Shown: one piece after another, positions 4,257-25,451 of the stretch
How the letters are laid out: each line of letters opens with the position of its first letter
Numbering within the stretch: the first letter of the stretch is position 1
DNA from: Candidatus Thorarchaeota archaeon SMTZ1-45
GTDB lineage: Archaea > Asgardarchaeota > Thorarchaeia > Thorarchaeales > Thorarchaeaceae
Reading direction: 5' to 3'
Assembly (NCBI GenBank): GCA_001563335.1
Contig: LRSL01000118.1
Coordinates: 2 to 64,001 of the forward strand
Length of the DNA: 64,000 nt
Translations under genes and position numbers: made by a program
The notes under the pieces: generated by a model
The model's input: only the letters and a program-made list of their open reading frames with translations
The model's database searches: none
What the model was told of the DNA's origin: nothing

Positions 4257-5024
4257 TTATAATGCATAGAAATACCGAGCTAAAAGGAATATTGCAATTA
4301 TTAAAGTCCCAGTAGCATTTCCAACCAGCCAGTTGCGAGCATTTTTTGGGCTGATCTTGAATGATCCAAGAGGTTTCAATCCTGATGGTGCTTTGTGATC
4401 CGGGTCTCCTGCAATCCACAGAATCTCCAGCGGATTTGCATCACTTGGGAAAATATCTAGGTAAAGATGAGAGGCGTATCCTAGAAGGAAAAGAGCAGTT
4501 ATGTAATATTCAGCTTCAGCACCAGCAGCAAGAATTGTTCCAGTTCTACTAGCTACATTTACTGCTGTTGCTAAAACAGCTAGCAAGGGAAGGATGCCTG
4601 AGTGAAAGATGATATTTCTGTGGCGTGAAATTCCAAGAAATGGAATGTCCCAATCTGGCACCAAGGCGCCTGCAATGGTGATGATGGCACCGATGAAGAT
4701 CGATATGTTTCCAATAACAGTAACTAGGCTATAGAATTGGTAAACAGTGGTGCCAACTAATGAGCCAATGCAGAATGTGACAAAGAATAATGCACCCACA
4801 GCACCTTTATTGCTGGATGTTCTTGCTCTCATTTCTCTGTTAGGTGCTTTATAATAGAGAATCGGAACACAAACAATACTTGTTACAAAGCCACCCATGA
4901 TATAGAATAGCAGTAACTCGCTAAGAGTGCCTAAATCTGAAAGCCAGACACTAAAAGCGAAAATCAAAGAATAAAGACCTACAAAGAGAGCAAAAGCGAA
5001 TACAATGTGAGAAACACGATTCAT
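4257..5024 (-). CDS. Membrane-bound metal-dependent hydrolase-like protein (DUF457/YdjM-like)
   Basis: Multi-pass hydrophobic protein with an N-terminal SH, then PDWDIPF...RHRNIIFHSG and SHLYLD. These His/Asp motifs are characteristic of the YdjM family. Confidence 0.6.
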   Translation of the reverse strand: MNRVSHIVFAFALFVGLYSLIFAFSVWLSDLGTLSELLLFYIMGGFVTSIVCVPILYYKAPNREMRARTSSNKGAVGALFFVTFCIGSLVGTTVYQFYSLVTVIGNISIFIGAIITIAGALVPDWDIPFLGISRHRNIIFHSGILPLLAVLATAVNVASRTGTILAAGAEAEYYITALFLLGYASHLYLDIFPSDANPLEILWIAGDPDHKAPSGLKPLGSFKISPKNARNWLVGNATGTLIIAIFLLARYFYAL

Positions 5025-5068: not shown

Positions 5069-7441
5069 TTATTTCTTTCCCCCTCTCAAACCGGGGAACC
5101 AATACTGAGTACTCCTAGAATAACTGCGTTGTTCTTTTGCAACACCATTCTTAACAAGGAGTTCAAGCGCGTTCTTCACTCGTTCCTCAGTCCAACCCAG
5201 ACTTACAACAGCATCTTCTATGTTGAGAAGTCCATCTTTGCTTGCTGCAAGACTGAGTATCTCTTGTGGATCATTTGTGAGTGCGACAGGGACGAATTCC
5301 ACCAGTAGCGCGCCTCCCTCTATTTTAGAGAGACCCTGAATTAAGCCCTCTTTGGCCATGTCTTCTATAATTCGTTCAATTTCATTTGCATGAGTTCCCC
5401 ACCCAGCAATATCCAGTCGTACAAGGAGTTCTGAGAAAAGCATGATTCCACCAAACATTTTGGAATCTTCTGCCATCCTAAGGATGTCACGTCGAAGACC
5501 ATCAGTTCTATTATCTCTCTTCAGGAGTCTTCTGACCATTCCAGATTGCTTCTTTGCTTCAGCGATCCATGATTCAGGTTCATAGCCTAATTCAGTAAGG
5601 AGCTCGAAGAGCGCAGATCTATATGCTGGAATACTTAGTAAGGTGCTTCCTTGGGTTTCAAAGGCCTCCCATAAGCGCTCACGAATCATATCTAAGCGCC
5701 GAGATCTATCAACTAATTCATCTAGTCTAGCTGCTATTTGCTCTTCATGTGAAAGTGAATTGAGCATTATTGGTATCGCCACAGCACTTGTTGATTCAAT
5801 TGTAAATTCAATAGGTTTGTCAAAATATCTCGACGCACGAACAACACCTTCGTAGCTACTCATTGGTATGGAAACAACAATGATTCCTTTGTCATCAGAT
5901 TTTGCAGAAATTGCACCTAGTTCAAGCTCAGCGTTTTCGACCGGTCGTCCAGCTTCGTCTTGAATATGAAATCGTACACGACAAAGGGTTCCATCAACAA
6001 CAAGAGGAGTAACACGACGTTTCATGCGTGTCTTTATTTTTACTTCAGGAAAACCTGACAAGATGACTTGCAATTCTTCAATTAGTGGACGTTTCACAAG
6101 TCCATCACCCAAGAGTGATTCCGCACCCTCCAGAATTAGAGTCCTAGATTCTTTTACTGAGAGTAGATTGAAATTCTTAGAAGACTCTCGTATGAATTTC
6201 CTCAACGCAACATCATTATTTGCTCTTTCACTCAATAGTGATGTGATAGCATCTATAGCTCGAGAGGGGCTTGAGAACCCATCGACAAAATCACGTCTTC
6301 GACTTACTTTTTCACCATTAGAAACAAGTTGAGAGATTGGATAAACTTCAATATGGAGTTGCCCCTTTTTTGAAAAGCCAGCAAGGAAGAAAGGTAACAG
6401 AATTAGGGCGTCTTTGCCCCCATCGTTCACAGGTGATATAGGGACAGACATATCGATAATGGAGGAAAGTTGATCATTAAGTGTCATTTTGGCAGCCTGG
6501 AATTCTGCAACAAGATTATCTCTCTCTATGAGTAAGTTTCGTGAGTTTCCTTGGATATTAGAGAGTGTTTCATTTCTTCTGGCTTCATCACGTTCAAGAG
6601 CAGCTTTTCTTGCCAACAGTGTTGTCTTTATTTCTGCAAGTCGCTCCGGTTTTGTATCTGATGATGATGCTGAAATTTTGGTAAATTCTGACTCCAGAGT
6701 TTCGATTTGTTGATGTAATGAATCAATCCGCAAGTCCAATCTTGAAAGAATTGGAGCTGATTCAGCCTCACCTTTTTCTACTACTGACTCAACCTTTGCT
6801 GCTAGATTATCAATGAGAGAGGATACTGTTTTCTCAACTGAACTCAAGGTTGATGCGGTTTCTAGCAGGATATCGATTGATTTTTGAAATTCCTTCTGCT
6901 TCAGTAAGCCTGCAAGAAGTACTTCGAAGTCCTCAACTTGATTTCTAAGAGGCCTGTCGAGTATCTGTGCAATTCCTCGAGCCATCAATCCACTCATCAA
7001 GCCCAAGATTGTGAAACGTTCAGTTGTTCTTAGTGATGTAACTATTTCACAAGCATCCCTAACAGCTCCCAACAGTGTTTCAGCATCGATACTTGATTCA
7101 AGCTTCTCAACAATTGATGTAGTTGTGTAACTTCTTTGTTTTATAACAGACTCACTAGTGAGGCCTAGAAGTTCAACAAGAAAACTCCGATTGGGAAAGG
7201 GGGATTTAGCTATTTCCACAGGCAAGTAGCATTTGAGAATGAATTCAAGTTCGCGACCATCGCGTTGTTCTATTGCACGAAGAACCATGCCAGCTAAAAC
7301 ATAATCTTCTGGTATTGACTGTTCCATTGGTTGACCGCCTGCTAACTGGAGTCTCCTCGTAGCTGTTGAGGGTACAATGAGGTTCCAACGGTCAAGGTTC
7401 ATCGTGATTCCTATTGTTGAAATCATAGGAATGCTTTTCAT
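5069..7441 (-). CDS. Large coiled-coil protein with a C-terminal EAP30 (ESCRT-II Vps22/Vps36-like) tandem winged-helix domain
   Basis: 790 aa. The last ~220 aa align by eye to human SNF8/EAP30: GGIMLFSELL, LLVEFVPVAL, LGWTEERVKNALELLVKNGVA, and terminal YWFPGL versus SNF8 HYWLPALF. The centre is heptad-rich helical. The N-terminal ~560 aa are unassigned. Confidence 0.75.
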   Translation of the reverse strand: MKSIPMISTIGITMNLDRWNLIVPSTATRRLQLAGGQPMEQSIPEDYVLAGMVLRAIEQRDGRELEFILKCYLPVEIAKSPFPNRSFLVELLGLTSESVIKQRSYTTTSIVEKLESSIDAETLLGAVRDACEIVTSLRTTERFTILGLMSGLMARGIAQILDRPLRNQVEDFEVLLAGLLKQKEFQKSIDILLETASTLSSVEKTVSSLIDNLAAKVESVVEKGEAESAPILSRLDLRIDSLHQQIETLESEFTKISASSSDTKPERLAEIKTTLLARKAALERDEARRNETLSNIQGNSRNLLIERDNLVAEFQAAKMTLNDQLSSIIDMSVPISPVNDGGKDALILLPFFLAGFSKKGQLHIEVYPISQLVSNGEKVSRRRDFVDGFSSPSRAIDAITSLLSERANNDVALRKFIRESSKNFNLLSVKESRTLILEGAESLLGDGLVKRPLIEELQVILSGFPEVKIKTRMKRRVTPLVVDGTLCRVRFHIQDEAGRPVENAELELGAISAKSDDKGIIVVSIPMSSYEGVVRASRYFDKPIEFTIESTSAVAIPIMLNSLSHEEQIAARLDELVDRSRRLDMIRERLWEAFETQGSTLLSIPAYRSALFELLTELGYEPESWIAEAKKQSGMVRRLLKRDNRTDGLRRDILRMAEDSKMFGGIMLFSELLVRLDIAGWGTHANEIERIIEDMAKEGLIQGLSKIEGGALLVEFVPVALTNDPQEILSLAASKDGLLNIEDAVVSLGWTEERVKNALELLVKNGVAKEQRSYSRSTQYWFPGLRGGKK

Positions 7442-7508
7442 ACTTTCTTATGGAGAAACAAATGAGCTTCAAGCGCGCTTCATTACGAAATAATGTAGTT
7501 CAAGGAGC

Positions 7509-7916
7509 ATGAATATGAAAAGAGATGATCCTCTGCTGCTTCCATTATGTCAAATCTGTGGAGAATACAAAGGCGTTGGACCTTGTAAGAATCCAGCATG
7601 TCCAGATTGTTTTAGTAGAGATACTGCTTTGAGAAAGGAAGATGTGGAACAGAACACACACCAAACGTGTGGTATCTGTGGAAAGGTGAAGTTTGTTAGC
7701 TGTGCTCAATGTGGAAATAGTTTTTGTGAATCACATAGTTTGGGTGCCAATTCGAATCATTTCATGAATTTTAACCAACATCTTGGAACATGTGTGGAGT
7801 GCCTGAAGATTATCTGTGAGAACTGCTGGATTCTAAGTCCAAAAGGGGAGATTATTTGCTTAGTACATCTAGAGAAAGAACGAAAAACACATGCATATCG
7901 CTCACCTAACCCTTAG
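7509..7916 (+). CDS. Cysteine-rich multi-zinc-finger protein
   Basis: 135 aa with CQICG-x9-CKNPACPDC, CGICG-x7-CAQCGNSFCESH and CVECLKIICENC...CLVH. The middle unit follows a CxxC-x7-CxxC-x4-CxxH cross-brace (HIT/B-box-like) spacing. Confidence 0.65.
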   Translation: MNMKRDDPLLLPLCQICGEYKGVGPCKNPACPDCFSRDTALRKEDVEQNTHQTCGICGKVKFVSCAQCGNSFCESHSLGANSNHFMNFNQHLGTCVECLKIICENCWILSPKGEIICLVHLEKERKTHAYRSPNP

Positions 7917-7940
7917 GCATTACATGAGGGTCAAACATTT

Positions 7941-9086
7941 ATGTTAATACTACAACTCCATAGAGTGGGACGGCATATGCCAGAGGCAACATTTGTGGTT
8001 CATCTTGATGATTATCAAGGATTCCTAGTTAAGCAAAGATACCCCTCATCACTTACTCTCAATGAGAAAGTTTTGAATTTGATTTTCTATGAGCAACAGA
8101 AAGAGGATAAAGAGGAATTGAGTCTGGCGGAAATTGAAGGATTTAGAATAGCAATCTTCAGCGCACCAGAATATCCAAAATGGATGGTTTGCACTATCCT
8201 CGGTGCTGAGGAGGATTACAACCTAGTCGATGAAGGACTTGCCGGTTCAGGAAGGCTCATTCTTGCCTTAATGAATGAAGATGAGGAATCAGTGAATCTT
8301 GAGGAGATTGTTAAAGCTGGGAGTATCCTAGAAAAGACCAAGGAAGAGCAAAAACTTGCATCTATCTTTCTCACTCCATCGTCAGCGTTACTACTCGAAC
8401 GTATGCAATATGAAGGTGTTGAGAAAGCTGCTAAACTCTCAATTTGGCTAAAGAATCAGGTCCAAGATGAAGTAGACCTTCGTGAGGCAATGGCGCCTCT
8501 AATGAACACAGGCGTGGTTAAAGTTGAACTCGTCGGAAAAACATCAGAGATGGTCTTTCTTGTCAAAGACATCTTTGGCTACCGTGCTCCACCCGTTGAA
8601 TCTCTAAAGAGAGCTGCTCAAATAATACCAAGTATCGCAGAAAGATACAAAGAATATGTAACAGCATTCTTCTCACCACCCCCTCCAAACAAAGGATACA
8701 ATCCAACTTTGCCCATTAGTGATCCAAACTCACCCATTCTTGAAGATAGAGAGAAACTCTCTCGTCTTCTTGCTGATAGTTTGAACTACATGGTTCTTGA
8801 TTCATTGAGAGCTGAACCACTCTCTGCAGCAGAGGTGTCTTTGAAAACTGCACTTCCAGAATCCATAGTGAAGAAAGTACTTTGGGCACTGGAATCAGAG
8901 AAGGTAGTCGTCCATTTTGAGGATGAGGATGTATGGGCACTTTTAACGAATCCTCGGATTGAATCTTTTATTCCTGAATACGTCCTACCAATGATTAAGA
9001 AGAAGGTATCAGAGAAAGAAATAACACCACAAATTGCACGCAGACATCTTGAACTCTTGATTCAAAACTATGGTGAGCCGGAATGA
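7941..9086 (+). CDS. Hypothetical protein: N-terminal alpha/beta domain plus two winged-helix-like segments
   Basis: 381 aa. GAGG lies 12 nt upstream of the ATG at 7941; the alternative start is 7977. WH-like stretches are LREAMAPLMNTGVVKVELVGK and LSAAEVSLKTALPESIVKKVLWALESEKVVV. The stop overlaps the next start (ATGA at 9083). Confidence 0.7.
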   Translation: MLILQLHRVGRHMPEATFVVHLDDYQGFLVKQRYPSSLTLNEKVLNLIFYEQQKEDKEELSLAEIEGFRIAIFSAPEYPKWMVCTILGAEEDYNLVDEGLAGSGRLILALMNEDEESVNLEEIVKAGSILEKTKEEQKLASIFLTPSSALLLERMQYEGVEKAAKLSIWLKNQVQDEVDLREAMAPLMNTGVVKVELVGKTSEMVFLVKDIFGYRAPPVESLKRAAQIIPSIAERYKEYVTAFFSPPPPNKGYNPTLPISDPNSPILEDREKLSRLLADSLNYMVLDSLRAEPLSAAEVSLKTALPESIVKKVLWALESEKVVVHFEDEDVWALLTNPRIESFIPEYVLPMIKKKVSEKEITPQIARRHLELLIQNYGEPE

Positions 9087-9934
9087 TCAGAAGTGTCTAT
9101 GTACTTGGCGAGCAGGGAAATATGCTCTATTCCAAAGATTATGCTAAAAGTGAGTCTAAAGCAGAACTGGTTGAGTTTCTGGTCAATCTTACTCATTTCT
9201 TGAAGACTGTAGACCTTGAAGATAAGACAGAGTTCATGAATGTGGCTATTTCACGTATCTTCTTTGCACAGAGAGATAATTTCACGTTCATGTTTGTTGC
9301 TGACAAGGCAGATGATGCAACTCAAATTGAAGAAAAGATGGGGCAATTAGTTGATTCATTTATGCGTGATTTTGCAAACCTAGCTCATGCAAACCAACCA
9401 CTAGATGGTTTTGATGAGAAAGTTGATGAGATTGCTGTCACGATGGTAAAAGTCGCCATCTTGGGGTTTGCAGGTGTTGGAAAAACCACGACACTCCATC
9501 TTCTTAGAGGTGAAACCCTTCCTCTTGTCCATGATCCCACAATAGGTGTATCAATCAAAAAATTACCTGAAGAGGTAGAGAATGCCAACATAGTTCTTTG
9601 GGATCTAGCTGGGCAGTCAAGATTTAGCATCCTATGGGCGAAAATGATTGCTAATGCTCAGGTTGTAATCATAGTCACGGACAGTACCTTAGAGAATGTT
9701 TTGAGGAGCAAGAAGCTAGTAACTCTTGTTAAAGAAGAGGTTCCTGATGCAAAAGTTATAGGTATCGCCAACAAACAAGACCTTCCTACTGCTTTAACAC
9801 CAGAAAGAGTCGGTCAAATTCTTGGAATTCCAACTTACGAACTTGTGGCCATTGACATTTCATATAGAGATAGGCTTATTCAAATCATTCGAAGAGCCAT
9901 CCTTGAGGGGAAGGCTGAAACAAAAGCCGCTTGA
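9083..9934 (+). CDS. Longin-like domain fused to a Ras-superfamily small GTPase
   Basis: The N-terminus MIRSVYVLGEQGNMLYSKDY... resembles the start of AP sigma-adaptin/longin folds. The C-terminal half has G1 GFAGVGKTT, G2 PTIGV, G3 WDLAGQ and G4 NKQD. GGTGA lies upstream. Confidence 0.85.
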   Translation: MIRSVYVLGEQGNMLYSKDYAKSESKAELVEFLVNLTHFLKTVDLEDKTEFMNVAISRIFFAQRDNFTFMFVADKADDATQIEEKMGQLVDSFMRDFANLAHANQPLDGFDEKVDEIAVTMVKVAILGFAGVGKTTTLHLLRGETLPLVHDPTIGVSIKKLPEEVENANIVLWDLAGQSRFSILWAKMIANAQVVIIVTDSTLENVLRSKKLVTLVKEEVPDAKVIGIANKQDLPTALTPERVGQILGIPTYELVAIDISYRDRLIQIIRRAILEGKAETKAA

Positions 9935-10022
9935 TTGAAATCCACTGAATATTCGTCAAGGCAAAGGTTAAGAACTAAACAAGAGGATGTACCACGTAAC
10001 TAGCGCACTTGGGTGACTATAC

Positions 10023-10589
10023 ATGTCCTTTGATATAAGCGCAATAATGGAGAAACTTAAAGAAATCGAAGACTTCGCCGAGAACGTAGCTGAAACCAAG
10101 AAGCTTGCGGATCAATTGGCTGAGAACTTCACGAAAATGAAGATGTCTATCAATCAGACGATTAATGATAGCTTTGCAGAAATAGCCAATCAGATTGAAG
10201 CTCTGAGGCAGAACATGGAGAAAATGGAAAGCGTCAAGACAGATGCCCCAAAAGTTGAGACTCCGGCCCCAGCACCAAAGCCTGCACCAGCGCCGGAGAT
10301 TACGACTCCAGCTCCTGAACCAACACCAGAACCAGTTGTTGAGGTGACTCCTGAACCGGTGCCGGAACCAGAACCCGAACCTGTCGCAGCAACTGAGGCT
10401 GCACCAGCAGAGGGTAGCGACCAGTTGGACTTCCTGCTTCAACAGAAAGATAGGCTGAAAGCTCAATTAACTGACCTGCGTTTTGACTACATGCGAGGGT
10501 ATATTCCAGAGGATGAGTACAAGACAAAAGAATCAGAGCTTGACACACAGCTTGAAGATATTGACAAACAGATTGCTGCCTTAAAATAA
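10023..10589 (+). CDS. Coiled-coil protein with a central Pro/Glu/Ala-rich linker
   Basis: 188 aa. Helical heptad ends flank APAPKPAPAPEITTPAPEPTPEPVVEVTPEPVPEPEPEP. Confidence 0.6.
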   Translation: MSFDISAIMEKLKEIEDFAENVAETKKLADQLAENFTKMKMSINQTINDSFAEIANQIEALRQNMEKMESVKTDAPKVETPAPAPKPAPAPEITTPAPEPTPEPVVEVTPEPVPEPEPEPVAATEAAPAEGSDQLDFLLQQKDRLKAQLTDLRFDYMRGYIPEDEYKTKESELDTQLEDIDKQIAALK

Positions 10590-16949: not shown

Positions 16950-18434
16950 CTATGGATTGTAGGCGAATGGGTGCCTTGCTGATTCTTTTCGAGCAATTAT
17001 CTCATCTACTCCCTGACGACTCTCTATTGCCCTCCTGAGCGCATGTCTCACAGCAATGAAGTTGTTAATATGAACTCGTGTCTTGTTAACCGCACTTGGG
17101 TGTACAAAGACATTTGCAGCAATAACAAGGTCCCGAACAAGTTCCTCAGGGATTATATTGTCAGTGATTGTCCGGCGCACTGCATCAGCCACAGCCCTTT
17201 GTGCAACATCATAGACCATCTTCTTGTGATCTTCTGATGTGATTGTAACTGTGGGAGCAAAAACAGTAATCAACTCAAGGTCCTTAATGATATTCGATTG
17301 ATGCGTGTCCTCTGTCACTTTCCCTGCATTCCTAATTGCCACTCTCATGGGACCATCACGAATGCCCAATATTAGATCAACATGAGCAACTTCATTACCA
17401 CCACCAAATAACGCTTCTCCATGCATCAAGGTCAGATCTGGAATCACATCTGGCACCATTCCAACAGCTTTGGGGTAAGTTTCAGACTCAATTGAACGAT
17501 TACCCATCTTGAATGTGACAATACCACGTGGGATCATCTGAAGATCCTCAAGGCAAGTTCGAATCTCATCATGCATGTCATATCCAAGAATATCTCCAAT
17601 TAGGAGAGGCCGTCTAGCAAGTCCCACTGGCACACCCATCATATTCAAAGCCGCTTTTACTGCTAGTCCACCTCCATTGTTAACAAAAATACGTACAATC
17701 TTCTGAATGCTTCTTTGAATAATACGCGCTTCTTTCAGGTCTCCTGTGGCAAGTGCTGTTTGCATCCTAATATAGCGGTCAGGAAAAACGTTGGCACTCG
17801 CTAGAATTGCACCATTACAACCAGATGCAAGTGCAGGTAAAGCAACTTCATCATGACCCACCATCACTTGGAAGTTTTCTGGTTTTCGGACCAGAATTGT
17901 CGTCAGATTTACTAGGTCGCCACTAGAATCCTTCAAACCGATTATTCCATCAATATCTCGAAGACCATCAATAAGAGTCCAATGCATGGGAACGCCAGTC
18001 ACTTGGGGAATATTGTAAACAATGATTGGTATGTCACTATTATTAGCTATCTTTTCAAAATGTTCATAGATTTCTTTGTTTGATGGCTTCAGGAAGTAGG
18101 GAGAAACGATAAGCGCTGCAGCAGCTCCAAACTCAGCAGCTCTTCGAGTCAGTTTGATAGCATCATTTGTATACGCATGGCCGGTTCCAGCAAGCACTGG
18201 AACTCTTCCTTTTGCAGCTTTGCATGCTATACGTATTGCTTCCTCTTTCTCCTCAAATCTCATGCTTGTGAACTCCCCTGTAGTTCCACATGGCACGATG
18301 CCAGTCGCGCCACTCTTAATCGTGAAATCAATGAGATTGCGATACTGTTTTTCATTCACACCATTCTTATCAAAGGGTGTAACGAGCGCAGGGTAGACAC
18401 CTTTGAAACGATATTCAGCTGTCATTGGGATCAC
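16950..18434 (-). CDS. DapA-family class I aldolase fused to a C-terminal formaldehyde-activating-enzyme (Fae)-like domain
   Basis: The N-terminal ~300 aa carry GTTGEF, YNIP and IIGLKDSSG (Schiff-base Lys). The C-terminal ~170 aa carry GEALFGGGNEVAHVDLILGIRDGP ... IIPEE ... VFVHP ... ARHPFAYNP, matching Fae as I recall it. Confidence 0.85.
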   Translation of the reverse strand: MIPMTAEYRFKGVYPALVTPFDKNGVNEKQYRNLIDFTIKSGATGIVPCGTTGEFTSMRFEEKEEAIRIACKAAKGRVPVLAGTGHAYTNDAIKLTRRAAEFGAAAALIVSPYFLKPSNKEIYEHFEKIANNSDIPIIVYNIPQVTGVPMHWTLIDGLRDIDGIIGLKDSSGDLVNLTTILVRKPENFQVMVGHDEVALPALASGCNGAILASANVFPDRYIRMQTALATGDLKEARIIQRSIQKIVRIFVNNGGGLAVKAALNMMGVPVGLARRPLLIGDILGYDMHDEIRTCLEDLQMIPRGIVTFKMGNRSIESETYPKAVGMVPDVIPDLTLMHGEALFGGGNEVAHVDLILGIRDGPMRVAIRNAGKVTEDTHQSNIIKDLELITVFAPTVTITSEDHKKMVYDVAQRAVADAVRRTITDNIIPEELVRDLVIAANVFVHPSAVNKTRVHINNFIAVRHALRRAIESRQGVDEIIARKESARHPFAYNP

Positions 18435-19825
18435 CTCCAGATTCCTTCAAGTGCGCTTTCTACAGCTTGTTTTGTTGCTGCAGTAATTTCACGACGATTT
18501 CTTGAATTCAAATCTATGTCCAAAGCCAGAATGACTACATCATCAGTCATTGTTTTTGTGGGTATCTTTTCAGATTCCAAGAAAGATGCTATAGCTTTTG
18601 CAGCACCGGATTGTACAGGTCCATAGAACAATGAAGCTTGACGCATGGAATCGATTTTTCGGGTCGGAAACATTAGAGTACTAGGTTTTACAGCAAGATT
18701 TGGCTCGAGAATAACACTTAGAGCCTCATGTCCAATCTTCGGTACTGTGAGCAGGCGTACAAATGCACTGCCAACCAATCCTGCTTTGGGACCAGTAATT
18801 ATGCCTACTGACACTATTTCGTTTGCAGCACTACTTTTCTGCAGTTCTGAAACATCTTCAAGGAGAATTCCCTGATCTTCAAGGACAGCCAGTATATTGA
18901 TGTCATCCTGAACTGATGGATGTTCCAACTTCGAGATTACACCCATCTTCTCAAGCTCTATACGAATCTCTTCCTTAATCTCAGGAATAAGGGTTCCTCC
19001 ACTGTCCAAAGGCATCCGAGAACGACCTGCATTAATACCAAGCATTCTAAGAGCGGCTTTCACTGGTGGAGCAGCCCCATATTTTAGAACCATTCGAGCA
19101 AAAGTCTGTGTGGATCTTTGGAGTTCTGCAGCCTCCTCAACTCTTCCATTCTGTGCCAAGTTCATAATTTCAAGCCAGATATGCGGGATGACATTGGCAG
19201 AAGCCATAATTGCAGCTTTTGAACCAGCTACAACTGCAGAGAGGAAACACTCGTCTGCACCTATGATGACCTCCATTTTCCCCTTAATCTTTTGAATCAG
19301 TTCCAGAATATAAGGTACGCTTCCACTGCTGTCTTTAATTCCAACAATGTTATCTAATTCAGCCAAGTCTTCAACAACATTAGAGTTCAGGACTCCAAGT
19401 GTACACTGAGGAATATTGTACATAATTATAGGGAGATTACCATCACTGGCAACTTTTTCATAGTGCTCATAATATCCCTTGTCTGTTGGCCGGAGAAAAT
19501 AAGGAGATATTACAATCGCTGCATCATATCCCAAATCAGCAGCAAACTTTGTTAACGCGATAGTTGCCCGGGTGCTATGCTGACCAGTACCAGCAATTAT
19601 TGGAACCCGTCCATCTACATATTTGACTGTAAGTTTTAGCATCTTCTTACGTTCTTCCGTTCTCAGGTATGAGAACTCACCAGTTGTGCCTAGGGCTACT
19701 ACTCCGGTTGCACCCTTCTCTATCGTATAGTCAATGACTTGCCTATACCCATCCTCACTAATATCTCCATCACGTGTGAATGGGGTCACAAGCGCAGGCA
19801 TTACTCCTTCTGGCTTGAACTTCAT
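18431..19825 (-). CDS. Second DapA-family aldolase fused to a divergent Fae-like domain
   Basis: GTTGEF, YNIP and IVGIKDSSG. The C-terminus reads ITGPKAGLVGSAF ... LSVILEPNLAVKPSTLMF ... FYGPVQSGAAKAIASFLESEKIP. The start is taken at MKFKPEGV (ATG at 19825). The stop overlaps the next start (ATGA). Confidence 0.8.
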   Translation of the reverse strand: MKFKPEGVMPALVTPFTRDGDISEDGYRQVIDYTIEKGATGVVALGTTGEFSYLRTEERKKMLKLTVKYVDGRVPIIAGTGQHSTRATIALTKFAADLGYDAAIVISPYFLRPTDKGYYEHYEKVASDGNLPIIMYNIPQCTLGVLNSNVVEDLAELDNIVGIKDSSGSVPYILELIQKIKGKMEVIIGADECFLSAVVAGSKAAIMASANVIPHIWLEIMNLAQNGRVEEAAELQRSTQTFARMVLKYGAAPPVKAALRMLGINAGRSRMPLDSGGTLIPEIKEEIRIELEKMGVISKLEHPSVQDDINILAVLEDQGILLEDVSELQKSSAANEIVSVGIITGPKAGLVGSAFVRLLTVPKIGHEALSVILEPNLAVKPSTLMFPTRKIDSMRQASLFYGPVQSGAAKAIASFLESEKIPTKTMTDDVVILALDIDLNSRNRREITAATKQAVESALEGIWR

Positions 19826-19949
19826 CAGAGAATCACCATAGCCTCGAGCTTCGAAGTGGGTATAAATGGCCTTCGATTTATGAGAGAATAAGGTCAGTAG
19901 AAATTTAGTAATAGAAGTCGCTATATGATATCTTTGTGAGAGATAAATC

Positions 19950-20270
19950 ATGCATGAATATGTAGTTGTCATGACAACATGTCCAATGGAGATTAGTGAT
20001 GAGTTGGCTCGAATCTTGGTTGAAAGTCGAGCATGTGCTTGTGTAAATATTATACCCAAGATTACTAGTGTGTACCATTGGAAAGATGAAATAGTCGTAG
20101 ATGATGAATCCCTTTTGATAATGAAGACAGAAACAAAACAATCTGAACATCTCTGGAATGTTCTGAAGGACAATCATCCCTATGAGGTTCCAGAGTTTGT
20201 TGTTCTCCCTATCGAATGGGGCTCGCAGGACTATCTTGATTGGATTTCAAAAAGCGTACAGAAACGTTGA
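19950..20270 (+). CDS. cutA: Divalent-cation tolerance protein CutA
   Basis: 106 aa with the CutA1 pattern: VVMTTCP...A..LV...ACACVNIIP...SVYHWKDEI...E..L+MKT...YEVPE. Confidence 0.85.
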   Translation: MHEYVVVMTTCPMEISDELARILVESRACACVNIIPKITSVYHWKDEIVVDDESLLIMKTETKQSEHLWNVLKDNHPYEVPEFVVLPIEWGSQDYLDWISKSVQKR

Positions 20271-20279
20271 GTCAGCCAG

Positions 20280-22730
20280 CTATGCGATATCAGCTCTGCG
20301 AGCTGCATATGTTAGGGATTCGTTAAAGTATTTTCCAACAATTGCGCATATTGCAGGACCAACAACATAGTTGATTTCCCCAGGCATTAGCTCCTTCAGA
20401 TTTGTCTTTGAGGTCAGTTTGCCTTTTCTCTTGAGAATCCCTATCTCCCGATCAATGGTGGATTTTGCTTTATCCCAAGACATGGGCTCAACACCTCGAC
20501 CTGTACCTATCAAACCCTCTTTGATTTCAAATAGACTTCGCATAATGAAAATTGATAGATTATCCATATCAGAAGAGTCTTTCATGAAATTGACACCATG
20601 CTGTGAGCATTTTGCATTGCTTGGTTCAGATCCACAAGCAGAGCATATCTTACGTCCTCTGTTTGTTTTGATATAGTATGCCAAAAGATTAGCACATTTT
20701 GTAGTGTCATTTGGAGTCCATACAAGACCCTTCGCTCCCACTCGACTTATGGCTCGAAATACTGTGCGTGCTTTGTTGTGAAGGTACATCAAAACATCAA
20801 TGCCCTCTTTCCGCTCCTCAATTCTACGTTTTTCCTTCTGTTTGGCTTCGAAGGCAAACTCCTCCTTTGCGAGTTTCTCAAGCCGCTCTTGTTTCAAGAA
20901 ACGCTGCATGATATCATAGGCTATTGCATAGTTATCGAACTCCAAACTGGTCATATCTAACGATTTATCGACAATACCCTCAAAGACTGGACTGATGGAG
21001 GTTTCAAGGTCTTTAGCAGCAGCTATCATATCCTTCGTCGAAAATCGAGCGTGCATCCATGTGCAAATTGACTGTGCATCTAACTCAGGATAAACAATCT
21101 TCATCTCGTAAATTCTCATGGATGCAAGATCAATCAAGATTTCTTCTCTAAGGAATTGCAGGGTTGTATCAGTATCTTCGTAAATACTCTTTAAAAGTGC
21201 TTTAATTCGAAGAAGGTCTTGTTTAGATCGAATATAGGATTCAACGACTCGTGTTAGATTTGTAAGAATACCAATCGTGAAATGCCAAATGAAATCGAGT
21301 CTCAAACTTACAATTGTTTCATCTTCTGTTCTCTGTTGACTGAAATCACGAGCTGATGAAATACCAAGAGAACTCAGTGCACCACTTTTAACCTGCTCAC
21401 GTGTTTCTAGAAGCCTGATGACCTCTGCAGGAGGTGGAACTCGCATTTTATTATTGAGTGCTTCGAGTACTTCTATTTCTATACCGACTAATTTTGCACG
21501 ATCCTTGGTAAACATATCTATGCTGATTTTATCAAGTTCAGTTGCACGAAGTCCTTTTGATCTAAGCATGCCCTTAACTGGTCCATTAAGTGTATTTTCT
21601 ATCTTCTCGAGAGCCTTCAATGAGCGCTCAAGCATCTCAAGTTCTTCCTTACTAATAGCTGGTGCTGATGAATCTGAAGTGCTATCAGCAGTCAATGATT
21701 TTAATCCAGGACCGATTATTGATAAGTCGCTTATACCCTTCCTTCGAAGCTGTGCTTTAACATCATCAATATCTACATTGAGAAATTTCGAAATTGTATC
21801 AAGTACGGAATCCGAATCTATTGATAAGATTTCAGCAGCTTTGGTAGTCACAACCTGTCCTAGACGAGATTCATAATTTTCTAGCGTAGTTGGAATATCG
21901 AATTCTTTCTCGAGAACTTCGAGCAAATGTAATCTAATTTCATGAGCATTCCTAAGACCCTTGAGAGTATCAATAGGTTTGCAGAATCTCTTCGTTATTG
22001 TTGATGCAATCTCATCCCAACTCTTAATTGGAATGGTTGTATCAAAAATGTGGCCCTTAGAATATTCTATTCGTCCAAATATTTTCTCAAGACCCATTTT
22101 AAGAATGGTGGTTTCGGGAACCTCTGAAGGATGTTCCCGCAGCAATTCATCTCTTAGAGATAGCGCACTCTCCTTTAAACCAGAAGCTTTGACATATAGC
22201 TCCTGTCGCCAATCTTGACCCCAACCAGTGACCTCGAGTATCAAGTCAATATCATGATTAGAATTGTATTCAGAAGGGATTTTTTTTAAGGTTTCTTTGA
22301 GTAGATTGAGTGCCTTATCTTTACTATCGGAATTAGGATTTGCACCTCCCAGTTCGTCAACGAAACAAATTATCAACTCACTTACTAGCTTAGCAACATC
22401 AATCTCCTCACGCTGTTTACCCGAGAAGAATTGTCGGACTTCAAGCTCAAGCTGTCGTCGTTCCTCCGCCCCTAGTTCATCTTTCATGTCACTGCCCGCA
22501 CTAGGCACCTCCGATGGGGTCAGAAGGCGAATACCCTGATAGCTGTGGAGATAGAATGCAGCAAAGAAGGAAAAAACATCTTCAAGCGGTCGAGGTTCCT
22601 TGAGTAGTTCGTGAAATAATTGACGATCTCTGCTACTTCGCATATGTGAAGCCAGGGCTTCTCTCAGTAGTATCTCTTTGCCAGCCTCACTCATTTGACG
22701 TGTCTTTAATACCCAAGAACTTACCATCAT
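20280..22730 (-). CDS. Large orphan alpha-helical protein with a C-terminal Cys4/His zinc-ribbon-like motif
   Basis: ~816 aa. The ATG at 22730 lies 3 nt after the upstream stop and is preceded by GAGGTGA. CSACGSEPSNAKCSQHG lies near the C-terminus. No NTPase or other catalytic motif was found. Confidence 0.8.
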   Translation of the reverse strand: MMVSSWVLKTRQMSEAGKEILLREALASHMRSSRDRQLFHELLKEPRPLEDVFSFFAAFYLHSYQGIRLLTPSEVPSAGSDMKDELGAEERRQLELEVRQFFSGKQREEIDVAKLVSELIICFVDELGGANPNSDSKDKALNLLKETLKKIPSEYNSNHDIDLILEVTGWGQDWRQELYVKASGLKESALSLRDELLREHPSEVPETTILKMGLEKIFGRIEYSKGHIFDTTIPIKSWDEIASTITKRFCKPIDTLKGLRNAHEIRLHLLEVLEKEFDIPTTLENYESRLGQVVTTKAAEILSIDSDSVLDTISKFLNVDIDDVKAQLRRKGISDLSIIGPGLKSLTADSTSDSSAPAISKEELEMLERSLKALEKIENTLNGPVKGMLRSKGLRATELDKISIDMFTKDRAKLVGIEIEVLEALNNKMRVPPPAEVIRLLETREQVKSGALSSLGISSARDFSQQRTEDETIVSLRLDFIWHFTIGILTNLTRVVESYIRSKQDLLRIKALLKSIYEDTDTTLQFLREEILIDLASMRIYEMKIVYPELDAQSICTWMHARFSTKDMIAAAKDLETSISPVFEGIVDKSLDMTSLEFDNYAIAYDIMQRFLKQERLEKLAKEEFAFEAKQKEKRRIEERKEGIDVLMYLHNKARTVFRAISRVGAKGLVWTPNDTTKCANLLAYYIKTNRGRKICSACGSEPSNAKCSQHGVNFMKDSSDMDNLSIFIMRSLFEIKEGLIGTGRGVEPMSWDKAKSTIDREIGILKRKGKLTSKTNLKELMPGEINYVVGPAICAIVGKYFNESLTYAARRADIA

Positions 22731-22733
22731 CAA

Positions 22734-25370: not shown

Positions 25371-25451
25371 GTGTAGACACTCCTGAACGAAAGCGAAAGC
25401 TGTAAGATACAAAGAATCAATATCGCAATCTTTTGAATATAGCTCGGTCAG

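Follow-up and report, generated by a model that had tools for sequence, protein, structure and literature searches.

The window analysed here is a 64,000-nt stretch of DNA from Candidatus Thorarchaeota SMTZ1-45. It holds a locus of two divergent transcription units, and all four open reading frames (ORFs) listed in the preliminary description, the 67-nt spacer between the units and the ATGA overlap between two of the genes are present in the sequence. The features of the locus are as follows:

4257–5024, minus strand: YdjM-family polytopic membrane protein (Pfam YdjM, 1.2e-7)
5069–7441, minus strand: EAP790, large multidomain protein; longest ORF 790 aa, probable start at M14 (7402; 777 aa)
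5087–5755, minus strand: EAP30/Vps22-like module of EAP790 (residues ~563–785), one long helix plus a tandem winged helix
5756–5992, minus strand: transthyretin/CarboxypepD_reg-like beta-sandwich of EAP790 (residues ~484–562)
6449–6898, minus strand: long antiparallel coiled-coil hairpin of EAP790 (residues ~182–331), from AF2 secondary structure
7442–7508: divergent intergenic spacer, 67 nt between the longest ORFs
7509–7916, plus strand: Cys/His-rich multi-zinc-ribbon protein, 135 aa, accessory gene
7941–9086, plus strand: NPRL2-like longin-WH-WH protein; ORF of 381 aa, with a probable start at 7977 (369 aa)
~7977–8291, ~8376–8588 and ~8736–8969, plus strand: longin, WH1 and WH2 domains of the 381-aa protein (AF2 model)
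9083–9934, plus strand: LonGTP, longin-Arf-like small GTPase, 283 aa, in ATGA overlap with the upstream gene
~9083–9427 and ~9440–9931, plus strand: longin-like and G domains of LonGTP (Pfam and sequence searches)
10023–10589, plus strand: cc188, small coiled-coil protein downstream of LonGTP

EAP790 likely starts at M14 (MNLDRWN), where its homologues and the family profile begin, so that the real spacer would measure ~106 nt. The 381-aa ORF, in turn, most likely starts at M13 (MPEATF). A sigma-70 promoter scan of the spacer relied on a consensus that is not applicable to archaea. In agreement with the preliminary description, no ESCRT-I, Vps25, Vps4 or ubiquitin gene was found among the window ORFs scanned, a set that covered the small ORFs in part. 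Moreover, neither ESCRT-III genes nor SRP or FtsY genes were found near the locus.

The 381-aa protein had been described as carrying two winged-helix (WH)-like segments. Both are present in the AF2 model (pLDDT 80, pTM 0.76), but they follow an N-terminal longin domain that had been overlooked, and the overall build is that of NPRL2. The top three Foldseek matches were NPRL2 and yeast Npr2, across the full length (NPRL2 chains 9o5d_D, 9v0j_A and 7t3b_B, and Npr2 chain 8adl_S, identities checked), with E=6.7e-4 against NPRL2 and a TM of ~0.22, which is low because the domain orientations differ; MglB and LAMTOR were among the weaker matches. At the sequence level, no homology of the family to NPRL2 or, using hhalign, to C9orf72 was detectable, and the NPRL2 resemblance, as judged from the predicted model, is structural only. 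The longin-WH-WH family spans Asgard lineages (182 clusters) and was already noted by Liu et al., who reported an NPRL2-like family in most Thorarchaeota MAGs, and longin-GTPase fusions as well. The longin part of the family contains no conserved arginine. R64 of the LonGTP longin is not conserved either. Since an NPRL2-type arginine finger is absent, the protein could act as a GAP, a GEF or an effector.

The G domain of LonGTP was assigned to Arf by Pfam (E=1.2e-19), its best PDB sequence matches being Arl1/Arf1, and the N-terminal longin assignment is below threshold but consistent. With the ATGA overlap at 9083–9086, these results bear out the longin-Ras-like GTPase fusion proposed earlier. 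The G domain is almost invariant across Thorarchaeota, where identity amounts to 73–97% for the whole of LonGTP, 51–87% for its 381-aa partner and 37–80% for EAP790.

The NPRL2-like gene abuts the LonGTP gene in 44/44 Thorarchaeota loci, and the pairing recurs in other Asgard classes. In Jordarchaeia, a full-length orthologous operon encodes a 358-aa protein, a 282-aa GTPase (259 bits, longin included) and a 107-aa coiled-coil protein. GTPases of the same subfamily adjoin the module in three further contexts, from Loki- and Njordarchaeia and an unassigned MAG, with differing gene orders and orientations: upstream of it in the lokiarchaeal locus L068 (183 bits), divergent from a fused module in L069 (130 bits) and divergent from the module in the njordarchaeal L063 (128 bits). 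By comparison, human ARF1 reaches 56 bits, and unrelated Arf genes in the neighbourhood 15–33 bits. As for cc188, it was found 3' of LonGTP in all Thorarchaeota loci that extend that far and probably closes the GTPase operon; its relatives are encoded after the module in Jordarchaeia (the 107-aa protein, HMM E=3e-4) and in the Hod lineage (105 aa, E=1.6e-10 to the Jordarchaeia protein). The NPRL2-like protein and the longin-Arf-like GTPase make up the well-supported unit of the locus, and what is conserved beyond Thorarchaeota is this pair plus the small coiled-coil protein. The four-gene set of the preliminary description does not hold up as a natural unit, as the zinc-ribbon gene is missing in ~10 Thorarchaeota loci (L003, L036, L037, L039, L040, L043, L046, L050, L054 and L057), the EAP30-like protein is found in Thorarchaeota only and cc188 had been left out. 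For the rightward genes, its reading as a GTPase-switch module is sound. According to Tran et al., Asgard GTPases rarely occur in operons with longin or roadblock genes, which makes it hard to match them to their regulators; this locus is a rare case in which the genome itself pairs an Asgard GTPase with its likely regulator.

Several known systems resemble this pair. NPRL2/3 consist of a longin domain followed by two or more wHTH domains (PMC5681675), and the 381-aa protein shares with NPRL2-NPRL3 of GATOR1, which acts on RagA/B (Npr2-Npr3 of SEACIT in yeast), the N-terminal longin followed by winged helices, the best full-length fold match in the PDB and the encoding with a small GTPase. It differs in the missing sequence homology and in that the catalytic arginine of NPRL2 (R78, beta4-beta5 loop) is not conserved; in addition, there is no DEPDC5 here, and the GTPase is Arf-like with an N-terminal longin, whereas Rag GTPases have a C-terminal roadblock domain. 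The longin GAP complexes C9orf72-SMCR8 (CSW) and FLCN-FNIP likewise regulate Arf or Rag GTPases from a longin-longin platform, but no DENN domain and no arginine finger were identified here. In the broad Asgard family, beta1-loop-beta2 carries a near-invariant WDxxxG, spaced like W33-D34 ... G38-P39 of C9orf72. Those residues, and 'GP-motif' Asgard longins, have been named before (PMC12290439); the Thorarchaeota subfamily differs in having LDDxxG, and the proline of the GP motif is only sporadic.

Asgard fusions of longin or roadblock domains with GTPases have been described as 'Rag-like, close to Arf' (Tran et al. 2024, Liu et al. 2021); LonGTP has in common with them the longin plus G-domain architecture and the annotation as Arf by sequence searches. 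In MK-D1, however, longin/roadblock GTPases generally lie outside operons with longin, roadblock or TRAPPC3 genes (Tran et al. 2024), while LonGTP is translationally coupled to a longin partner in a pairing that recurs across classes. Other prokaryotic operons combining a small GTPase and a regulator of the Roadblock/longin superfamily are the Asgard LAMTOR1-like/Rab-like GTPase/DENN operon (Liu et al.) and bacterial MglA-MglB; here, the GTPase is Arf-like rather than Rab-like or MglA, and the partner is a longin-WH-WH protein rather than DENN or a roadblock dimer.

EAP790, the product of the leftward unit, has 102 homologues, all of Thorarchaeota type and full length down to ~40% identity, and the family is Thorarchaeota-specific. 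No membrane segment was predicted in the protein, which is cytoplasmic and multidomain (AF2 model, pLDDT 78). The preliminary description had recognized an ESCRT-II-type EAP30 tandem winged helix in the last ~220 aa, and the searches agree: the family profile aligned residues 562–773 with residues 7–215 of human SNF8 (E=1.5e-10) and also matched yeast Vps22 (4e-4), the best Foldseek match of the model was 3cuq_A (E=9e-6), with 2zme_A at 1.2e-5, and Pfam EAP30 matched 22/24 family members (best E 1.3e-7), the window protein itself scoring under the gathering score (E=2.9e-4). A generic wHTH was ruled out by the SNF8 profile match and by 3cuq_A; the C-terminus is specifically EAP30/Vps22-like. 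It covers almost the whole of SNF8 (PF04157), the N-terminal helix and both WH domains, at 23–24% identity. Unlike Vps22/EAP30/SNF8 and the Asgard Vps22/36-like proteins, EAP790 adds ~560 N-terminal residues with other domains, lies outside any ESCRT gene cluster and is restricted to Thorarchaeota. Its beta-sandwich matched 6hif_Y, 9hfj and 5aq0 in Foldseek (E 4.5e-5 to 6e-4, TMt ~0.75), and Pfam CarboxypepD_reg matched 5/24 family members. The coiled-coil hairpin sits inside an N-terminal alpha/beta domain (residues 19–180 and 344–372) for which neither profile comparison nor Foldseek gave a fold match; matches to the hairpin region itself were limited to coiled-coil proteins or weak HlyD/SMC-type ones. 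The YdjM-family gene lies 44 nt downstream on the same strand, its product having 6–7 hydrophobic segments, and may be co-transcribed with EAP790: it accompanies EAP790 in most Thorarchaeota loci, the rearranged L045 included, and is missing in L005, L015, L053, L055 and L056.

Altogether, we favour a reading, with a probability of about 0.6, in which a rightward GTPase-switch operon is accompanied by a leftward Thorarchaeota-specific scaffold that would be the lineage-specific partner or effector of the switch. Unit 1 (7509–10589) would be the small-GTPase switch operon. Its Arf-like G domain bears an N-terminal longin-like platform of its own and is coupled in translation to the 369-aa protein built like the GATOR1 subunit NPRL2, with cc188 following and, in most Thorarchaeota, the accessory multi-zinc-ribbon protein preceding. 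The two longin domains may lie next to each other as a pair, in the manner of NPRL2-NPRL3, FLCN-FNIP, C9orf72-SMCR8 and Mon1-Ccz1, and form a platform that sets the nucleotide state of the G domain attached to it, while the winged helices, which are acidic, and cc188 would offer protein-docking surfaces. Unit 2 (5069–7441, perhaps plus the YdjM-like 4257–5024) would encode a cytoplasmic scaffold composed, in order, of the alpha/beta domain, the inserted ~150-residue coiled-coil hairpin, a helical domain, the transthyretin-like beta-sandwich and the Vps22/EAP30-like tandem WH. By adjacency and analogy, EAP790 may fill the place of the large proteins that lie beside or are fused to the longin-WH-WH module in other Asgards (Odin, 1552 aa; Njord, 1602 and 1469 aa; Loki, >2334 aa). 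These are single-pass surface proteins, not homologous to EAP790, some of which carry CarboxypepD_reg-type sandwiches as EAP790 does.

The GTPase-switch operon is real; its link to the ESCRT-II-like EAP790, drawn from adjacency and analogy, is weaker. A check proposed in the preliminary description was whether the four genes keep synteny in related genomes, and the divergent arrangement was indeed found in 48/49 Thorarchaeota loci holding both genes. Nevertheless, a block of ~16 kb from AlaX to hydantoinase B (AlaX / NTP-transferase / ... / GluRS / hydantoinase), tRNA synthetases included, is collinear in nearly all loci, and synteny inside Thorarchaeota does not discriminate because these housekeeping genes are equally syntenic. 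It is quite possible, if somewhat short of an even chance, that EAP790 (with YdjM) is unrelated to the GTPase operon and shares with it, by chance or history, a slowly rearranging chromosome region. The sole two rearrangements seen in the stretch fall exactly between the units: in L045, the EAP790 gene is surrounded by carboxylase genes and no GTPase operon lies within 7 kb of it, and in L050 a 4.8-kb insert parts them. CP070658.1 is an example of a Thorarchaeota genome with the two units apart. Phyletic ranges differ as well, EAP790 being confined to Thorarchaeota and the operon also occurring in Jordarchaeia, and no EAP790 homologue was found next to the module outside Thorarchaeota. Such an accident is harder to reconcile with the short spacer, as divergent gene pairs sharing one are often co-regulated, or with the repeated association of the module with a large partner elsewhere, which leaves a vacant partner role in Thorarchaeota that EAP790 could fill. 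The preliminary description had proposed self-contained membrane remodelling as one of two options, and a version in which all four genes form a single module and the GTP-bound GTPase recruits the EAP30-like scaffold, nucleating ESCRT-II/III-type assemblies at the membrane via Vps25 and Vps20/32 encoded elsewhere, appears unlikely. It would draw on the genuine EAP30/Vps22-like module, on the conserved arrangement, on the polytopic YdjM-like protein directly 3' of EAP790 and on a eukaryotic precedent, the binding of the Arf-like GTPase Arl4A to ESCRT-II VPS36 (PMC10687025). However, no membrane segment was predicted in any of the four products, nor do they show an amphipathic Arf N-terminus, no ESCRT gene was found among the window ORFs scanned, L045 and L050 have the junction broken and EAP790 is missing wherever the operon occurs outside Thorarchaeota; neither the four products nor their surroundings lend direct support to self-contained membrane remodelling, which is a hypothetical role for the locus.

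Other readings concern the 381-aa protein itself. The sequence of WH2 resembles DNA-binding HTH domains of the ArsR type (HTH_20, IclR, TrmB, MarR and DprA_WH; PH1932, E=9e-5), relatives are named 'ArsR family regulator' or 'winged helix-turn-helix domain-containing protein' in some sources, and the gene adjoins a divergent promoter, as regulator genes typically do. Even so, a DNA-binding transcription factor, with an ArsR-type wHTH and a longin sensor, controlling the divergent promoter region under modulation by the GTPase, is improbable: both WH domains are net acidic (WH2 -3.7, whole protein -19), the protein as a whole finds its best fold matches in NPRL2 and Npr2, where the WH domains bind proteins, and the module lies in Jord-, Loki- and Njordarchaeia without an adjacent divergent EAP790-like gene. 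Moreover, nine clusters have it fused C-terminally ~85 residues after the TM segment of giant surface proteins, which favours a membrane-proximal adaptor role. Much the least probable is an SRP-receptor-like pair, the longin and the Arf-like G domain acting as SR-alpha SRX and SR-beta in co-translational targeting. The best single-domain Foldseek match of the longin was the SRX domain (1nrj_A, E=0.012), but SRX is simply a typical longin fold; Pfam SRPRB on the G domain (E=0.001) did not reach its threshold and scored far lower than Arf, and the GTPase has neither a TM anchor nor an SRP or FtsY gene context.

Regarding the remaining products of the GTPase-switch operon, the zinc-ribbon gene is poorly conserved, being lost or truncated in several Thorarchaeota clades. 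It had been called a Cys-rich cross-brace-type Zn-finger; the family assignment is weak (zf-AN1, HIT and C5HCH, E 0.01–0.06), but the conserved Cys/His pattern is real (CxxC-x9-C-x4-C ... CxxC-x8-CxxC-x4-CxxH ... CxxC-x5-CxxCW-x11-CxxH). The fifth conserved gene, cc188, which was not in the gene list of the preliminary description, encodes a protein whose N-terminal helix is conserved and whose C-terminal motif is invariant, with a variable Pro/Ala/Glu linker between them.

The best-supported interpretation of this region is a small-GTPase switch operon, composed of an accessory Zn-finger protein, an NPRL2-like longin-WH-WH protein, a longin-Arf-like GTPase and a small coiled-coil protein, lying beside a scaffold that is specific to the lineage and ends in an ESCRT-II Vps22-like module. 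The features concerned are:

5069-7441 (-), large protein with a Vps22/EAP30-like C-terminus (EAP790)
7509-7916 (+), Zn-finger protein of 135 aa
7941-9086 (+), longin-WH-WH protein (381-aa protein)
9083-9934 (+), longin-Arf-like GTPase of 283 aa
10023-10589 (+), small coiled-coil protein (cc188)

The first four open reading frames lie exactly where the preliminary description had placed them, with the 67-nt spacer (7442-7508) and the ATGA overlap of the last two genes (9083-9086) that it had reported. At 100% identity, the 790-aa product corresponds to AM325_001600 of Candidatus Thorarchaeota archaeon SMTZ1-45, and the deposited version of the large protein begins 5 residues later than the 790-aa open reading frame. 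For two genes, a later start is indicated by the family profiles and by the lengths of the homologues: M14 of the large protein, which would give 777 aa, a start at 7402 and a spacer of about 106 nt, and M13 of the 381-aa frame, which would give 369 aa from 7977. Rfam and tRNA scans of the window returned nothing, and a sigma-70 promoter scan, the consensus of which is inapplicable to archaea, gave counts at chance level.

We then considered the 381-aa protein, for which the AF2 model (pLDDT 80, pTM 0.76) predicts the following:

residues 16-117, canonical longin domain (beta-beta-alpha-beta-beta-beta-alpha)
residues 146-216 and 266-343, winged helices, then C-terminal helices

The best full-length fold matches in the PDB were human GATOR1 NPRL2 (9o5d_D, E=6.7e-4; 9v0j_A) and yeast Npr2 (8adl_S), with Foldseek E values from 6.7e-4 to 4.6e-3; the identities of these chains were confirmed by a sequence search of the PDB with NPRL2, the query being identical to 6ces_N. 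NPRL2/3 consist of a longin domain and two or more wHTH domains (PMC5681675), and the modelled protein likewise has a longin domain followed by C-terminal winged helices, as in GATOR1 NPRL2/NPRL3. The NPRL2-like Thorarchaeota family of Liu et al. is very probably this same family. As judged from the model, the resemblance to NPRL2 is architectural only: no NPR2 or NPR3 Pfam hit was obtained in the family, its profile did not find NPRL2 among PDB sequences, and homology to NPRL2 was rejected at hhalign probabilities below 1%. Homology to C9orf72 was likewise rejected, as hhalign gave no match with the C9orf72 query used. Moreover, the arginine finger of NPRL2, R78, lies in the longin beta4-beta5 loop, whereas the 381-aa protein has a loop reading PEYPKW. 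Position 80 of the family is K, R or G in Thorarchaeota, and an alignment of 42 sequences holds no near-invariant Arg in the longin part. GAP-type longins carry a 'GP' motif, Gly-Pro before beta2 (PMC12290439); in this family the Gly is near-invariant (G15 of the family alignment A4) and the Pro is found in few members, e.g., P0401 and P0403.

Two rival functions for the 381-aa protein should be weighed here. It could be a transcription factor, a reading to which the second winged helix, ArsR-like by sequence, would lend itself; both winged-helix domains are acidic, and the whole protein has a net charge of -19. Alternatively, an SRX/SR-beta-like function could be proposed, SRX being one of the lower-ranked fold matches, all of them single longin domains (SRX, zeta-COP, sigma-adaptins, DENND10, LAMTOR and MglB), and NPRL2 and Npr2 being the matches over the full length.

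The partner GTPase has a G domain of the Arf family (Pfam Arf E=1.2e-19, 70.9 bits against a cut-off of 22.3), with Arf-type G1-G4 motifs (GFAGVGKT, PTIG, WDLAGQ and NKQD) and with Arl1 and Arf1 as its best PDB matches. Arf proteins have an amphipathic, membrane-inserting N-terminal helix, often with a myristoylated Gly2, whereas this GTPase starts with a longin-like domain of 115 residues beginning MIRSVY. It also differs from Rag/Gtr (PF04670), in which a roadblock dimerisation domain follows at the C-terminus, in ending about 15 residues past the G domain; the Gtr1_RagA match was below the cut-off (E=0.028). At its N-terminus, Clat_adaptor_s (sigma-adaptin) was matched in 8/12 members (best E=0.002) and Fuz_longin_1 (Fuz/Mon1 longin) in 4/12, an alignment with AP-2 sigma over its whole length (residues 1-105 on 1-103) had E=0.08, and the value for MON1 was 0.3; these sequence signals are sub-threshold and consistent with a longin domain, a fold of about 110 residues related to sigma-adaptin, SRX or Mon1. 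R64, in the beta4-beta5 loop of that domain, seemed promising at first as an arginine finger and was rejected, as it is not conserved; R58, R3 and an ADKxD motif are invariant, Jordarchaeia included. The G domain (window 9440-9931) is almost invariant across Thorarchaeota (homologues at loci L001-L060) whose other proteins are 40-70% identical, and identities within Thorarchaeota were 73-97% for the GTPase, 51-87% for its partner and 37-80% for the large protein. Only at locus L053 have switch I and switch II diverged (HIPTMAYDIK and GQSGYDKLW), as an exception to this pattern.

To look past Thorarchaeota, the profile of the 381-aa family was searched exhaustively, which yielded 182 clusters, 113 of them at E<=1e-10, and full-length members were found in Odin-, Njord-, Jord-, Hod-, Loki- and Helarchaeia. 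The longin-WH-WH architecture (hereafter the module) was accompanied by a GTPase at the following loci:

L065 (Jordarchaeia), 358-aa module, followed first by a 282-aa full-length longin-GTPase orthologue (259 bits) and next by a coiled-coil relative of cc188 with 107 aa
L068 (Loki), module between an upstream 411-aa GTPase that belongs to the same subfamily (183 bits, with the longin part) and a downstream protein of >2334 aa, which overlaps the module by 4 nt
L063 (Njord), module and GTPase (128 bits) in divergent orientation
L069 (unassigned MAG), giant protein with a C-terminal module, in divergent orientation to a GTPase (130 bits)

For scale, the same GTPase HMM gives 56 bits to human ARF1 and 15-33 bits to unrelated neighbouring Arf genes. 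No GTPase of this subfamily was present within 7-8 kb of the module in Odin L062, in L064 and L066, or in Hod L067. The pairing of GTPase and longin module recurs in at least four Asgard classes. Its recurrence there in differing orders and orientations is far better evidence for a joint function of the module and this GTPase subfamily than is synteny within Thorarchaeota. Counterparts of the EAP30-like and Zn-finger proteins were found at none of the non-Thorarchaeota module loci examined. In Odin L062 (4975-7667) and Jord L065 (1-2374), a module paralogue lies beside a conserved trio of proteins of about 416 aa, about 254 aa and a JAB/MPN deubiquitinase-like one, which hints at another copy of the module linked to ubiquitin-type chemistry.

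The coiled-coil protein cc188, absent from the preliminary description, is probably part of the GTPase operon. It follows the GTPase in all Thorarchaeota loci that extend far enough, and shorter relatives, also small coiled-coil proteins, follow the module in Jordarchaeia (L065 8961-9284) and Hodarchaeia (L067 8094-8411). Its C-terminal motif DQLDFLLQQKDRLKAQLTDLRFDYMRGYIPEDEYK is invariant and its Pro/Ala/Glu linker variable; a similar motif was suspected to be fused to the Loki GTPase at its C-terminus, and this match lacked significance (E=0.86). As to the Zn-finger protein, its conserved pattern of 16 Cys/His ligands is compatible with a cross-brace holding two Zn ions, with Pfam matches far below threshold (E 0.01-0.07 for zf-AN1, zf-HIT or MYND-type cross-brace families). 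The gene is treated as accessory: it is the least conserved of the set (33-59% identity), truncated in L001 and absent from about ten Thorarchaeota loci.

Within Thorarchaeota, 55 loci from species-representative genomes and metagenome contigs were compared. The NPRL-like and GTPase genes abut in 44/44 loci, and the large protein is divergent from them, at a distance of at most 1,031 nt, in 48/49. The expectation of the preliminary description that the arrangement be kept in related genomes was therefore upheld as far as gene order goes; its value is reduced by the fact that the entire block (AlaX, NTP-transferase, two hypotheticals, cc188, GTPase, NPRL-like, Zn-finger, EAP790, YdjM, GluRS, hypothetical, hydantoinase B) is just as collinear, so that Thorarchaeota synteny alone cannot show a functional link. 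The only two rearrangements among the 55 loci fall exactly between the two units, in favour of the rival explanation that the GTPase operon and the EAP790 unit adjoin independently. In L045, a complete chromosome (CP070658.1), the neighbours of EAP790 and YdjM are carboxylase and peptidase genes, and the surrounding 7 kb hold no GTPase operon. In the MAG locus L050 (2500-6900), the units are kept apart by a 4.8-kb insert with genes for a hypothetical protein, a solute-binding protein (SBP_bac_5) and a Band 7/flotillin-like protein of 444 aa. The YdjM-family polytopic membrane protein (window 4257-5024, -) is encoded 44 nt downstream of EAP790, and the two have stayed together despite the rearrangement in L045. 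The Hodarchaeota locus, too, has a YdjM gene (L067 4458-4973), 2 kb upstream of the module, which may be a coincidence.

Regarding EAP790, a single-sequence Pfam scan placed EAP30 below its gathering cut-off (E=2.9e-4, 21.1 bits against 26.8), and 22/24 diverse family members matched it at E<=0.05 (best E=1.3e-7). The family profile found human SNF8/EAP30 at E=1.5e-10, with residues 562-773 aligned to SNF8 7-215, nearly the whole ESCRT-II subunit, as well as yeast Vps22 at E=4e-4, and it retrieved no further winged-helix protein at E<1. The best PDB match of the AlphaFold2 model (pLDDT 78) was again human EAP30 (3cuq_A; Foldseek E=9e-6, 24% identity over 216 columns), and an N-terminal helix followed by a tandem winged helix could be aligned to Vps22/SNF8. 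The family-profile, Pfam-member and fold evidence therefore bears out the proposed EAP30 C-terminus over a generic wHTH. Vps22 assembles with Vps36 and Vps25 into the Y-shaped ESCRT-II complex, and the likeness of EAP790 to Vps22 is one of predicted fold and of sequence profile. The setting differs: ESCRT-II EAP30/Vps22 is a stand-alone subunit of about 230-260 aa, encoded in Asgards with other ESCRT genes, whereas EAP790 has 777-790 aa with four extra domains and is neighboured by GluRS, YdjM and the GTPase operon.

The remaining ~560 residues comprise, in order, an alpha/beta domain without a fold match, a coiled-coil hairpin (antiparallel, 150 residues, inserted in the alpha/beta domain), a helical domain and a transthyretin/CarboxypepD_reg-like beta-sandwich, and no hydrophobic segment was found. 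The family forms 102 clusters, all full length at identities as low as about 40%, and the only genomes in which it was found are Thorarchaeota-type MAGs. By hhalign the N-terminal domain had no similarity to the two longin domains, in a test that is insensitive because bona fide or likely longin profiles also miss each other; a longin fold would be compatible with the order of secondary-structure elements in residues 27-136. HMM searches gave no hit between EAP790 and the giant proteins beside the module in Odin, Njord and Loki, nor with a 747-aa protein in L064. The latter (8010-10253) is a repeated zinc-ribbon protein, with about eight CxxC...CxxH units and a C-terminal domain. Its gene is the second one downstream of the gene for the closest non-Thorarchaeota relative of the 381-aa protein, with a CN_hydrolase gene in between.

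The giants located before or after the module in Odin, Njord and Loki have an N-terminal signal/TM segment, a very large ectodomain (Ig-like, FG-GAP, LamG or CarboxypepD_reg) and, at the C-terminal side, a single TM segment with 150-200 residues of tail. Those with the module beside or fused are:

L062, 9595-14253
L063, 2773-7581 and 9180-13589
L068, 8125-15128
L069, 7001-13273

The arrangement was also noted for proteins P0378, P0379, P0382, P0384, P0390, P0407, P0423, P0433 and P0451. Nine clusters are fusions in which the giant carries the module at its C-terminus, always about 85 residues past the TM segment, and the fusions share a juxtamembrane motif, (K/R)IPxFVKK(V/I)R, also recognisable in unfused giants. 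From this position and the shared motif, the module behaves as a membrane-proximal cytoplasmic adaptor of large partners, in what looks like an Asgard-wide receptor-adaptor arrangement. This habit lends some indirect support to EAP790 being its large partner in Thorarchaeota; the giants are TM-anchored surface proteins, whereas EAP790 is soluble and not homologous to them.

By analogy with GATOR1, FLCN-FNIP, CSW and Mon1-Ccz1, the longin domains of the 381-aa protein and the GTPase might pair to form a regulatory platform; the partner of the GTPase could be a GAP, a GEF or an effector. A part in ESCRT function or membrane remodelling, as suggested in the preliminary description, would be a less probable reading. 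A wider reading, which we consider improbable as a whole, would have the module serve as cytoplasmic adaptor in a system of outside-in signalling or sorting common to Asgards. In Odin-, Njord- and Lokiarchaeia it is fused to giant single-pass surface proteins (integrin-like FG-GAP and Ig ectodomains, shared juxtamembrane motif) or encoded next to them; on this reading it would hand over to a dedicated longin-Arf-like GTPase, and the Thorarchaeota switch would have been rewired to a soluble scaffold ending in an ESCRT-II Vps22-like module. If that were true, the locus would be a prokaryotic forerunner of GTPase-controlled, ESCRT-linked cargo sorting, with a GATOR/CSW-like relation to the endolysosomal system.

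The switch operon and its neighbouring scaffold are built from known kinds of Asgard eukaryotic signature proteins (ESPs). In open-access papers and preprints we found no description of the 777-aa EAP30-bearing architecture, of a conserved operon in which the NPRL-like protein, the longin-GTPase and the coiled-coil protein are encoded together, or of an association between the module and giant surface proteins. Asgards have dozens of small GTPases and longin/roadblock proteins, and the usual scatter of the genes makes it hard to match regulators to GTPases (Tran et al.); the partner GTPases of GAP-like Asgard longins are a question raised by a 2025 survey. Here a single Arf-like GTPase is coupled in translation to a single longin protein of NPRL2 shape, so that biochemistry has a definite pair to work on, and SMTZ1-45 proteins have already been expressed and crystallised (Tran et al.). 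Should the EAP30-like scaffold be an effector, it would be the first prokaryotic link from a small-GTPase switch to an ESCRT-II-type module; should it not be, the locus would still be a useful, incremental addition to the Asgard ESP catalogue.

Elsewhere in the window, two adjacent large open reading frames of 817 and 892 aa (20280-22733 and 22734-25412, both -) had no Pfam match at E<=1e-5. Two tandem paralogous genes (16950-18434 and 18431-20173, both -) each encode a DHDPS-family aldolase domain fused to a formaldehyde-activating enzyme (Fae) domain.
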